A DNA stretch of 27,235 bases from Escherichia coli. GTDB lineage: Bacteria > Pseudomonadota > Gammaproteobacteria > Enterobacterales > Enterobacteriaceae. The notes beneath the pieces are model-generated. The model had not been told where the DNA came from, made no database searches, and saw nothing but the letters and a program-made list of their open reading frames with translations. The stretch lies in the NCBI RefSeq assembly GCF_003334385.1, contig NZ_QOWN01000058.1. One strand, written 5' to 3'. The translations under genes and the position numbers were made by a program. Shown here one piece after another: positions 342 through 2,555 of this stretch (the stretch's first letter is position 1; every line of letters starts with the position of its first letter).

Positions 342-1232
342 TTAGTTTTTACTATTTATCTTTGTTTGTGGTTCTCCTTCAGCAAGCTCAGCGCCAGTGA
401 CAGGATTGATGTCTTCATGGGATTTCAACCTTGTTGCCATAGCTTTTATCATAGCTTCTTGCTTGGTCGAAAGATTTATCGAGGCCTTCCCATCCCCACC
501 GTCAACCGCTGGAACTGGATCGGAAACATAGTCAAAGTTTTCATCACTGTTCCAACTACCTCTGACGTCTTCACCTTCTGACATGTTGTAATATACGTTT
601 TTGTATTTCTCAATTGGTGGTAATTTCCCTGGTGGAAAGGTGTTACGAATTGAATGTAATGCTTTTTCAAATGAAAGCATGTGTGCTGCTTCCCTGGTCA
701 TTAAAAATGCCAGAGTGTCTTTTACTCCAGGATCATCAGTAACATTAATGAGACGTTCGTAAATGATCTTTGCCCGAGCTTCAGCTGCAATATTTGAACG
801 AAGATCGGCCGTGACTTCGCCAATAGTATCAACATAAGCTGCAGTCCAGGGTACTCCAGCTGAATTAGTTAATGCTGGGCCTCCTCCGTAGAGGAGAGAA
901 GTTATATGGCTGTCATTGCCATTTTGAGTTAAGGAACGGTAAAGCTCAGCTTCATTCTCAGTTCCTTCAGCAAGTGCTCCTTTTGCACCTTTGTTGAGCA
1001 TACCAACAAGAGAACCAATAATTTCGAGATGACTTAGTTCTTCTGTTGCTATGTCCATCAGCATATCCCTTCGGCCTGCATCTTCATCACTTAAGCCTTG
1101 AGTGAAGTATCGGCATGCTGCTGCAAGCTCACCCTGTGGCCCGCCGAATTGTTCTAAAAGTAGATTAGCCAAGCCTGGGTTTGGCTCACTTACACGTACT
1201 GTATATTGAAGTTTTTTCACGTGTCTAAACAT
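342..1232 (-). CDS. katN: Manganese (non-haem) catalase, 296 aa
   Basis: Full ORF with AGGAGG Shine-Dalgarno 4 nt before the ATG. Protein resembles the Mn-catalase family (..EELSHLEIIG.., ..FLMTREAAH..). Last gene of a tight operon with yciG/F/E-like genes, as in the Salmonella yciGFE-katN arrangement. Symbol assigned by analogy. Confidence 0.8.
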   Translation of the reverse strand: MFRHVKKLQYTVRVSEPNPGLANLLLEQFGGPQGELAAACRYFTQGLSDEDAGRRDMLMDIATEELSHLEIIGSLVGMLNKGAKGALAEGTENEAELYRSLTQNGNDSHITSLLYGGGPALTNSAGVPWTAAYVDTIGEVTADLRSNIAAEARAKIIYERLINVTDDPGVKDTLAFLMTREAAHMLSFEKALHSIRNTFPPGKLPPIEKYKNVYYNMSEGEDVRGSWNSDENFDYVSDPVPAVDGGDGKASINLSTKQEAMIKAMATRLKSHEDINPVTGAELAEGEPQTKINSKN

Positions 1233-1250
1233 AATGCCTCCTCAAAAGAA

Positions 1251-1757
1251 TTATTTTTTGGCTTCAACTCCATCAATTTCAGATCTGACCATGAATTGTT
1301 CAGTGGTGTCAGGAATATGGTTAAGAAGCCATTCAGCCATTTGTTTTTCTTCATTAAGAATTGCTTCAATAATGGGTACTGAGGCTGTATCACCCGCATT
1401 TTTGGCTGCTGCGAGAAGAGATGTGTAACACGCAATTTCAAATTGTTCGAACACATAGCCACTGATCGAACCTTTGACAATTTCATCAGATGGAAAAATT
1501 CCACCAATGGATTGCCCAAACGCGGCCATTTTACTCATAGAGTCTTTAATGACAGAGCGCGAAATATTATTACGATCAAGTATGCTTTCAAGCTGTGAAA
1601 GCTGGTTCTTTGTTTCGCTAATGTGCTGCTCAATTCTGGAACGTAACTCTGGATAGTTTTCTATCCGGCTGGCCATAGACTCAAGCATTTTTTCAGCTTG
1701 TTTCTCCATCGCATGTGCATCACGAAGCCAGTCATGGTAATGTTCAATTCTATTCAT
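1251..1757 (-). CDS. yciE: YciE-like ferritin-like stress protein (DUF892 type), 168 aa
   Basis: ORF MNRIEHYHDWLRDAHAMEKQAEKMLESMA... recognised as YciE family; only 18 nt separates its stop from the catalase start. Confidence 0.8.
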   Translation of the reverse strand: MNRIEHYHDWLRDAHAMEKQAEKMLESMASRIENYPELRSRIEQHISETKNQLSQLESILDRNNISRSVIKDSMSKMAAFGQSIGGIFPSDEIVKGSISGYVFEQFEIACYTSLLAAAKNAGDTASVPIIEAILNEEKQMAEWLLNHIPDTTEQFMVRSEIDGVEAKK

Positions 1758-1793
1758 AATCTGTTTATCCTAAAAGAAATTGAAGTCTATAGT

Positions 1794-2294
1794 TCAGGAG
1801 TTATCCTGAGCTTTTTTATTAACGTTATTAAATGCCAGATCTGTTAATTTGACATCAGTAGCTTTTTCCTCTTCCAGTGTTTCTTTCAGGAGTTTAGCCG
1901 CTTTTTTATATCCTAATTGCTCAGCGAGTGTTACCAAAGTGCCATAACTGGCAATTTCATAGTGCTCTACTTTTTGTGCTGCAGCAATCAATGCTGCATC
2001 ACGTACTTCATTTTTATCAGTGCTTTCAATTACCTCATTCGCCTCTTCGATAAGTCCTTCCATTGCGGCACACTTAATTCTTTTCAATTTAAGACCATCT
2101 TCAGAATCAACAACCTGATCGATGCGTTCAATTTGACCATGTGTCTCATCAAGATGTGACTGAAAAGCAGCGGTTAATTTATCACTATATGCAGAGCGAC
2201 TAAGTTTAGACAGTGCCTTTGTTAGTTGTTTCTCAGCGCTGTATGTATCCGATAATAAGTGGATGAAGATATCTTCAACAGATTTAATTTGCAT
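1794..2294 (-). CDS. yciF: YciF-like ferritin-like stress protein (DUF892 type), 166 aa
   Basis: ORF ...MQIKSVEDIFIHLLSDTYSAEKQLTKAL... recognised as YciF family. Start set at the ATG at 2292-2294, preceded by GGAG, rather than the GTG two codons upstream used by the ORF track. Confidence 0.8.
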   Translation of the reverse strand: MQIKSVEDIFIHLLSDTYSAEKQLTKALSKLSRSAYSDKLTAAFQSHLDETHGQIERIDQVVDSEDGLKLKRIKCAAMEGLIEEANEVIESTDKNEVRDAALIAAAQKVEHYEIASYGTLVTLAEQLGYKKAAKLLKETLEEEKATDVKLTDLAFNNVNKKAQDNS

Positions 2295-2312
2295 AATCAC
2301 TCCAGAGTTTTC

Positions 2313-2336
2313 ACTGCGAGCCCGTAGGCTCGCAGT
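2313..2336 (-). promoter_or_regulatory. Intercistronic GC-rich hairpin between yciG-like and yciF-like genes
   Basis: Near-perfect palindrome ACTGCGAGCC-cgta-GGCTCGCAGT (10-bp stem, 4-nt loop); no U-run follows on the mRNA strand, so it looks like an internal stabiliser or attenuator rather than a terminator. Confidence 0.4.
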
Positions 2337-2372
2337 TAGCTTCAGTTATTCACGAATGTAGGGGGTAATAAA

Positions 2373-2555
2373 TTAAGAGTCAGATTTACGGCCGCCACCA
2401 TGGCTATTCTGACCACCTTTTTTCCCTGCTTCTGATGCTCTTTGTGGATCGTTTTTAAAATTACCGCCACTATGTTGGCCGCCTTTACGACCAGCGTCAG
2501 AAGCTTTTTGTCGATCTTCAGCGAAATTACCTGCACCGCCACGATGTTCGGTCAT
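2373..2555 (-). CDS. yciG: YciG-like KGG-repeat stress-induced protein, 60 aa
   Basis: ORF MTEHRGGAGNFAEDRQKASDAGRKGGQHSGGNFKNDPQRASEAGKKGGQNSHGGGRKSDS with repeated KGG motifs; GGAGAA Shine-Dalgarno upstream. First gene of the operon. Confidence 0.8.
   Translation of the reverse strand: MTEHRGGAGNFAEDRQKASDAGRKGGQHSGGNFKNDPQRASEAGKKGGQNSHGGGRKSDS

Follow-up and report, generated by a model that had tools for sequence, protein, structure and literature searches.

A further instance of the prophage-borne yciG-yciF-yciE-katN cassette, in a DLP12-family prophage of a commensal Escherichia coli

A 27,235-nt stretch of an Escherichia coli genome (contig NZ_QOWN01000058.1 of assembly GCF_003334385.1; hereafter the window, meaning this whole stretch of DNA) carries a four-gene operon, yciG-yciF-yciE-katN, close to its first nucleotide. 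This operon is very probably the known prophage-borne cassette also seen as the Z1924-Z1921/ECs_1652 element, here lodged in a near-complete DLP12-family prophage at argU of a commensal, where it forms a self-contained cargo unit with a proposed H-NS-silenced, RpoS-activated stress role. The cassette was already described and experimentally characterized in O157:H7 in 2017, and the window is a further instance of it. Gene content, protein families, metal ligands, prophage boundaries, second-copy status, divergence, borders, and the conservation of promoter and terminator sequences were analyzed directly. Control by RpoS, OxyR, and H-NS, protection against H2O2, and dependence on a type VI secretion system (T6SS) are taken from the literature on the near-identical genes of enterohemorrhagic E. 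coli (EHEC).

Gene content and prophage location

Four minus-strand open reading frames (ORFs) were confirmed at positions 342 to 2555. The spacers measure 18 nt (katN to yciE), 36 nt (yciE to yciF), and 78 nt (yciF to yciG), in agreement with the tight packing described in the original prediction. The spacer between yciG and yciF is reduced to 72 nt if yciF begins at a GTG located two codons 5′ of its ATG, which extends the ORF to position 2300. The RefSeq annotation of E. coli SCU-104, a commensal from the rectal swab of a healthy student, contains these four genes as well; the first 6 kb of the window share 100% identity with this genome. The genes are as follows.

342-1232, minus strand: katN, manganese (heme-free) catalase of 296 aa (Pfam Mn_catalase and structure matches)
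1251-1757, minus strand: yciE-like gene for a DUF892 ferritin-like protein of 168 aa (Pfam DUF892, PDB 3OGH)
1794-2294, minus strand: yciF-like gene for a DUF892 ferritin-like protein of 166 aa from the ATG (Pfam DUF892, PDB 2GS4/4ERU)
2373-2555, minus strand: yciG-like gene for a KGG-repeat general stress protein of 60 aa (two Pfam KGG repeats)

The gene order on one strand is that of Salmonella, as had been proposed, in contrast to the K-12 locus, which lacks the catalase and has 59 nt from yciE to ompW. The proposed families (a manganese catalase, two DUF892 proteins, and a KGG-repeat protein) were likewise recovered by Pfam for all four products. KatN matches Mn_catalase (PF05067) with an E value of 6.3e-87, residues 1 to 270 aligning with model positions 1 to 261 of 284. 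It also matches solved manganese catalases, namely, Anabaena KatB (6J42/4R42; E = 4e-47) and the Lactiplantibacillus plantarum enzyme (1JKU; E = 5e-35). In the numbering of the latter, we take the dimanganese ligands to be Glu35, Glu66, His69, Glu148, and His181. All five positions are occupied in the window KatN, by E35 (GELAAA), E65 and H68 (EELSH), E151 (AAEARA), and H184 (TREAAH), and the ligands are the same as those of Anabaena KatB in the alignment. The name given to the protein by RefSeq is "manganese catalase family protein."

YciE and YciF match DUF892 (PF05974) with E values of 1.4e-50 and 3.4e-54, respectively. Among solved structures, YciE matches E. coli YciE (3OGH; E = 3e-97), and YciF matches the YciF structures 2GS4 (E = 1e-82) and 4ERU (E = 7e-80). 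Salmonella YciF is an iron-binding ferroxidase for which Q54, E113, and E143 are required (preprint, bioRxiv 10.1101/2023.01.20.524870). The window YciF keeps these metal-site residues at equivalent positions of the alignment. The KGG repeats of YciG (PF10685) span residues 10 to 30 and 32 to 52 (E = 2e-8 and 4e-9, respectively). Shine-Dalgarno sequences precede katN (GAGGAGG), yciF (GGAG), and yciG (GGAG), while that of yciE is weak (AGGA).

The location of the operon inside a prophage, as originally predicted, was confirmed by locating both prophage ends. The prophage is lambdoid, near-complete, and ~47 kb in size, and it occupies the argU (DLP12) site. In SCU-104, its left end consists of the tRNA-Arg gene argU and intD, followed in order by genes for recombination, immunity, replication, Q, lysis, terminase, head, and tail and then by J, lom, tail fiber, and tfa. 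The distance from the end of tfa to the operon downstream is 120 nt. The right end is marked by a 44-nt sequence identical to the 3′ end of argU; this sequence is equivalent to the attR of K-12 DLP12 when the K-12 attL and attR are compared. Because this attR core is at 5336 to 5379, the operon is within the prophage. Given the placement between tfa (which ends at 222) and attR, the operon, a ybcY-type methyltransferase gene, and ompT are therefore all prophage cargo. Beyond attR, the chromosome continues with envY, ybcH, nfrAB, cusRS-CFBA, and pheP. The prophage features on either side of the operon are as follows.

1-222, plus strand: 3′ end of the tail fiber assembly gene tfa (RefSeq annotation; 97% identity to K-12 tfaD over 1-204)
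3060-3728, minus strand: ybcY-type class I S-adenosylmethionine-dependent methyltransferase gene, intact (RefSeq; 97% identity to the K-12 ybcY pseudogene region)
3959-4912, minus strand: ompT, the final cargo gene before the prophage end (annotation; 98% identity to K-12 ompT)
5336-5379, plus strand: attR core, exact copy of the argU 3′ 44 nt, right prophage end (0 shuffle matches)

The same cassette is found in EHEC O157:H7 EDL933 as Z1921-Z1924 (ECs_1652 in strain Sakai), with 97.3% DNA identity over window positions 1 to 3811. The O157:H7 YciE, YciF, and YciG proteins are identical to those of the window, and the KatN proteins differ by 2 substitutions (I207L and P241S) over 296 residues. 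The window KatN is identical to that of E. coli 55989. O157:H7 also shares the position directly after tfa and the downstream ybcY-type methyltransferase gene. The two instances differ in prophage and integration site, which is icd in the O157:H7 genome examined and argU/DLP12 in the window. They also differ between the methyltransferase gene and ompT. This interval holds a tfa fragment, an IS66 element, and an alpha/beta-hydrolase gene in O157:H7; the window prophage carries neither the IS66 element nor the hydrolase gene. Finally, the published host is EHEC, in contrast to the commensal from a healthy person that carries the window cassette.

Wan et al. named the product of EDL933 Z1921 KatN in 2017 and described Z1921-Z1924 as a horizontally acquired operon on cryptic prophage CP-933X, homologous to Salmonella yciGFEkatN (PMC5363993). 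In that study, regulation of katN depended on RpoS, OxyR, and H-NS, with H-NS acting as a repressor and a 450-fold derepression in an hns mutant. A katN deletion mutant grew more poorly in H2O2 and showed lower survival in macrophages, KatN secretion was T6SS dependent, and non-pathogenic E. coli were said to be without katN (PMC5363993). The deletion phenotype in H2O2 and the RpoS dependence, which the original prediction had put forward as experiments, have been determined for this EHEC copy (PMC5363993). In a pangenome study, ECs_1652 was present in nearly all sequence type 11 (ST11) genomes (PMC9205054).

Cassette borders and regulatory elements

The borders of the cassette were determined by comparison with two prophages. 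In a blastn comparison with K-12 DLP12, window positions 1 to 204 and 3013 to 3811 match adjoining K-12 sequence at 97%, and K-12 DLP12 holds 29 nt in place of the 2.8-kb cassette. The last ~6 codons of tfa (from position 205) diverge from K-12 tfaD and, being past the breakpoint, are assigned to the cassette. Homology to E. coli 55989 ends at 3025, which is the end of that prophage. From the breakpoints against these two independent comparators, the cassette is therefore delimited to 205 to 3012. Its GC content is 39.0%, compared to 56.4% in the prophage structural genes and 52.0% in the chromosomal part of the window, in keeping with the AT-rich DNA noted in the original prediction. A transposon-like insertion was considered and rejected, as no notable direct or inverted repeats flank the cassette and the occurrence of the 11-nt sequence AATACCAGAAG at both 207-217 and 327-337 does not exceed chance expectation.

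The right end of the late operon of lambdoid prophages harbors so-called morons, such as lom and bor of lambda or appY and ompT of DLP12. The cassette resembles these elements in its position between the last tail gene and attR, its own predicted promoter and terminator, its atypical GC content, and its presence or absence among homologous prophages (as seen in K-12 DLP12). Unlike a typical moron, it is a four-gene operon that duplicates a host locus and extends it with a catalase. The cassette and its predicted regulatory elements are listed below, together with the terminator that abuts the cassette.

205-3012, minus strand: cargo cassette of 2.8 kb (terminator, katN, yciE, yciF, yciG, promoter, and AT-rich upstream region)
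221-254, minus strand: predicted intrinsic operon terminator (9-bp stem GAAGCCCGC/GCGGGCUUU, followed by UAUUUU)
2313-2336, minus strand: hairpin with a 10-bp stem in the yciG-yciF spacer (ACUGCGAGCC-UACG-GGCUCGCAGU)
2615-2642, minus strand: predicted operon promoter (-35 TTGACA, 16-nt spacer, -10 TAGAGT preceded by C and followed by TAA)
2643-3012, minus strand: AT-rich upstream region (not detectably similar to the region upstream of yciG in K-12 or Salmonella)
3008-3054, abutting the cassette: predicted terminator of the ybcY-type methyltransferase gene (fold of -18.1 kcal/mol, z = -4.6)

The operon terminator sits between the convergent genes tfa and katN. Its RNA is predicted to fold with -16 kcal/mol (z = -4.0), and none of 200 shuffled sequences was as stable. 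The promoter matches the scanned consensus at 10 of 12 positions. When the regions upstream of yciG were aligned from 10 operons, including those of K-12 and Salmonella, the blocks TTTGAC...CTA..TT were the sole conserved ones. RpoS dependence has been determined for the EHEC copy (PMC5363993). The window element TTGACA-16-cTAGAGTtaa agrees in position and sequence with those of K-12, Salmonella, and seven other operons and may likewise be of the RpoS type. Between yciG and the cassette border (2556 to 3012), the GC content falls to 28.7%, and the sequence is unalignable upstream of the -35 element. This AT-rich region likely serves as a binding platform for H-NS. A 63-aa ORF with a TTG start lies in it (2780-2971, minus strand); it is absent from the RefSeq annotation and probably spurious.

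The hairpin in the yciG-yciF spacer (CUGCGRGYC-loop-GRCUCGCAG) is kept in all 10 homologous operons compared, from 8 genera and with one compensatory pair, while the spacer sequence around it is otherwise unalignable. It probably acts as an attenuator within the operon or stabilizes the RNA. In most genera, a U-rich tail follows and gives the hairpin the look of an attenuating terminator. In the prophage copy, this place is taken by UGAAAAC, and the loss of the U tract could raise read-through into katN.

Probable role and competing explanations

The stress role of the cassette, as proposed here, would proceed in several steps. H-NS would silence the AT-rich cassette during growth, and in stationary phase or under stress, RNA polymerase with RpoS would fire the conserved yciG promoter. 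KatN, as a dimanganese catalase, would dismutate H2O2 without heme; by analogy with the EHEC protein, which protects against H2O2 and is two residues apart, it may have such heme-independent activity. YciE and YciF, as di-iron ferritin-like proteins, would oxidize or sequester Fe2+ and thereby reduce Fenton chemistry, with YciG contributing as a small hydrophilic KGG-repeat stress protein. These parts of YciE, YciF, and YciG in the cassette we infer. The lysogen would thus gain a second stress locus, equipped with a catalase that is missing from the chromosomal copy of E. coli. Where a strain possesses T6SS-2, export of KatN into host cells may occur in addition.

The distribution of the cassette was assessed among complete E. 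coli genomes, of which 382 of 5426 (~7%) carry it, in all cases on the chromosome. O157:H7 makes up most of the carriers, and the others include commensal, otter, baboon, and river isolates. Directly after tfa, the cassette is found at three integration sites, namely, argU (the window), icd (O157:H7), and ydfJ (55989). In IMG/VR, KatN with at least 97% identity is encoded on nine prophage contigs, and PHROG families exist for all four proteins.

Several points weigh against a stress-cargo role. With a 450-fold H-NS silencing in EHEC, the operon may rarely be expressed. As to expression and activity, the operon of this strain is known from its sequence, and the promoter and terminator are sequence predictions. 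KatN scores 167.4 bits against NCBIfam NF052557 (ManCatBAC), under the 350-bit cutoff, which makes it a member of the family and not an equivalog of the Bacillus-type manganese catalase; the NCBIfam search gave no equivalog for any of the four cassette proteins. In addition, carriage by sequenced phage isolates was considered and rejected, as a megablast search of 50,697 phage records returned no match to the cassette, which among viral sequences is confined to the prophage-derived IMG/VR contigs.

An alternative is that the cassette is chiefly the source of a secreted effector, with KatN delivered through the T6SS. In EHEC, His-tagged KatN reached the supernatant only in the presence of the T6SS, a beta-lactamase fusion was translocated, macrophage reactive oxygen species were lowered, and the katN deletion mutant survived less well in macrophages (PMC5363993); the claim is repeated in PMC12981562. 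The window KatN is only two residues away from this protein (Z1921). On the other hand, the partners YciE, YciF, and YciG and the putative RpoS promoter are typical of a cytoplasmic general stress locus that is conserved in many non-pathogens, and the carriers extend to the commensal and animal or river isolates named above. Moreover, Pfam finds no recognizable T6SS effector domain in KatN, and the EHEC katN deletion mutant behaved like the wild type in mice (PMC5363993). We therefore regard a mainly secreted role as possible but unlikely. Only carriers that have T6SS-2 could export KatN by this route.

The cassette might also be a silent, neutral hitchhiker that travels with the tail fiber end of lambdoid prophages and is kept off by H-NS. 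The low GC content, down to 28.7% in the upstream region, the 450-fold derepression in the EHEC hns mutant (PMC5363993), and the carriage by only 7% of complete genomes fit this explanation. It is nevertheless quite improbable, as none of the four reading frames is disrupted, the metal ligands that were checked are all present, the proteins are 99 to 100% conserved across the three integration sites and several phylogroups, and the promoter core and internal hairpin are conserved as well. The growth phenotype of the EHEC katN deletion mutant in H2O2 also speaks against neutrality (PMC5363993). Both the silent hitchhiker and the mainly secreted effector are supported less well than the stress-cargo role.

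Second copy, origin, and significance

The genome of SCU-104 retains the ancestral yciGFE locus beside trpA (2193529 to 2194846), without katN and 100% identical to that of K-12. The window locus is therefore a second copy, as the original prediction of a second, phage-borne copy had it. The K-12 yciGFE locus (b1259-b1257) shares the promoter core, the internal hairpin, and the AT-rich coding sequence with the window. It differs in lacking a catalase gene, in its chromosomal position between trpA and ompW, and in its sequence, with a DNA identity of 74%. At the protein level, the window and K-12 share 88% (YciE), 80% (YciF), and 88% (YciG) identity. Over yciG to yciE, the DNA identity is 74.2% between the window and K-12, 72.8% between the window and Salmonella, and 76.3% between K-12 and Salmonella. 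No gene conversion tract was found between the window and host copies, every 120-nt sliding window showing at most 82.5% identity. The 74% identity, comparable to the 76% between K-12 and Salmonella, and the lack of a conversion tract therefore indicate acquisition from elsewhere and not a recent duplication, in line with the predicted horizontal origin. Judged by these sequence identities, the window copy has diverged from the host yciGFE at genus level or more.

The opposing explanation, that the window locus is the only or ancestral yciGFE or a recent duplicate of the host genes joined to a foreign catalase, draws on the grouping of YciE with K-12 YciE (neighbor joining, bootstrap of 96, 88% identity) but is already refuted by the separate trpA-linked locus, by the position of the window copy between tfa and attR (5336-5379), by the divergence from the host copy over its whole length, and by YciF, which is no closer to K-12 than to Enterobacter or Salmonella.

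The Salmonella enterica yciGFE-katN operon shares with the window cassette its four genes, their order, the -35/-10 core, and the yciG-yciF hairpin, and its proteins are 84% (KatN), 83% (YciE), 80% (YciF), and 88% (YciG) identical. In contrast to the window cassette, it is chromosomal (between trpA and ompW) and of normal GC content, with a GC content at third codon positions (GC3) of 55% in katN versus 31% in the window. The Salmonella region upstream of the -35 element is unrelated to that of the window. Beraud et al. are said to have found in 2010 that this operon is RpoS dependent and regulated by YncC/McbR and H-NS.

Homologues were further scanned in one genome per species, covering representatives of 100,044 species. 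The same four-gene order is present in Salmonella, Enterobacter, Klebsiella, Leclercia, Lelliottia, and Phytobacter, and among these representatives, the trpA-ompW position of the four-gene locus is found only in Salmonella. KatN identity reaches at most 86 to 87% among the species representatives (Kosakonia and Phytobacter). The phylogeny suggested in the original prediction was built by neighbor joining; it placed YciE with E. coli (bootstrap of 96), while KatN and YciF branched with bootstraps of 46 and 42, respectively, the prophage copy sitting on a long branch. Among these representatives, no donor species was identified.

The cassette could belong to a separately evolving, AT-drifted yciGFE-katN lineage without a surviving chromosomal donor, the sole remnant of a catalase-bearing locus lost from the chromosome in the Escherichia lineage and circulated by lambdoid prophages. 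This origin is speculative and rather doubtful. It is hinted at by the grouping of YciE with E. coli and by the absence of any species representative above 87% KatN identity. A further hint is the katN GC3 of 31%, which resembles that of E. coli yciE and yciF (34% in the E. coli yciE) and contrasts with 55 to 68% in every other genus. The near-clonality of the copies in the 9 viral contigs and 382 E. coli genomes points the same way.

In SCU-104, a second lambdoid prophage (2140032-2193469) is integrated at the 3′ end of ompW, adjoining the ancestral yciE and parting yciGFE from ompW. Its right end is marked by a duplicated ompW fragment, and its cargo comprises a YadA-like adhesin and a 1341-aa S6-family (SPATE-type) autotransporter peptidase. 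The K-12-type ancestral yciGFE region has a megablast match in 4736 of the 5426 complete E. coli genomes, so that ~13% are without it or carry a much diverged version.

Further observations concern the argU prophage, the rest of the window, and SCU-104. The ybcY-type methyltransferase gene is intact (222 aa) in the window and a pseudogene in K-12. Between it and ompT, K-12 carries tfaX and appY (1.7 kb), compared to only 97 nt in the window (window positions 3060-3908 versus 19107-21634 of the K-12 stretch L003). The SCU-104 prophage also encodes an uninterrupted nmpC/ompC-type porin and an iss/bor serum survival lipoprotein (26486-27568 and 29359-29652 of stretch L099), genes that are disrupted or different in K-12 DLP12. 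Rfam detects IS009 (RF02111) in the 3′ end of tfa (1-182, plus strand), with 200.7 bits against a gathering threshold of 117 and clipped by the window start. It also detects a sok antitoxin RNA of the hok/sok type I toxin-antitoxin family upstream of ybdK (26842-26997, plus strand; 84.4 versus 59 bits). Upstream of the argU region, SCU-104 positions 870001 to 920000 are not colinear with K-12: gcvTHP, xerD, lysS, and ygeV, at ~3.0 Mb in K-12, lie ~350 kb before argU in SCU-104. This arrangement implies that the chromosome has undergone a large rearrangement or that its replicon layout differs.

The presence of the cassette in a commensal with an almost intact DLP12-family prophage means that the statement that non-pathogenic E. 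coli lack katN is too strong. Beyond the published EHEC work, the window makes modest additions: a commensal host, a third integration site (argU), borders at 205 to 3012 against the K-12 DLP12 remnant, a divergence from the host yciGFE comparable to that of Salmonella, and a conserved intra-operon hairpin. In prophages at three or more integration sites, the cassette accompanies the tfa end. A lysogen would gain from it a heme-independent catalase plus extra iron-detoxifying and general stress proteins. Temperate phages can in this way restore or upgrade a stress locus of their host, a point already made for EHEC in 2017.

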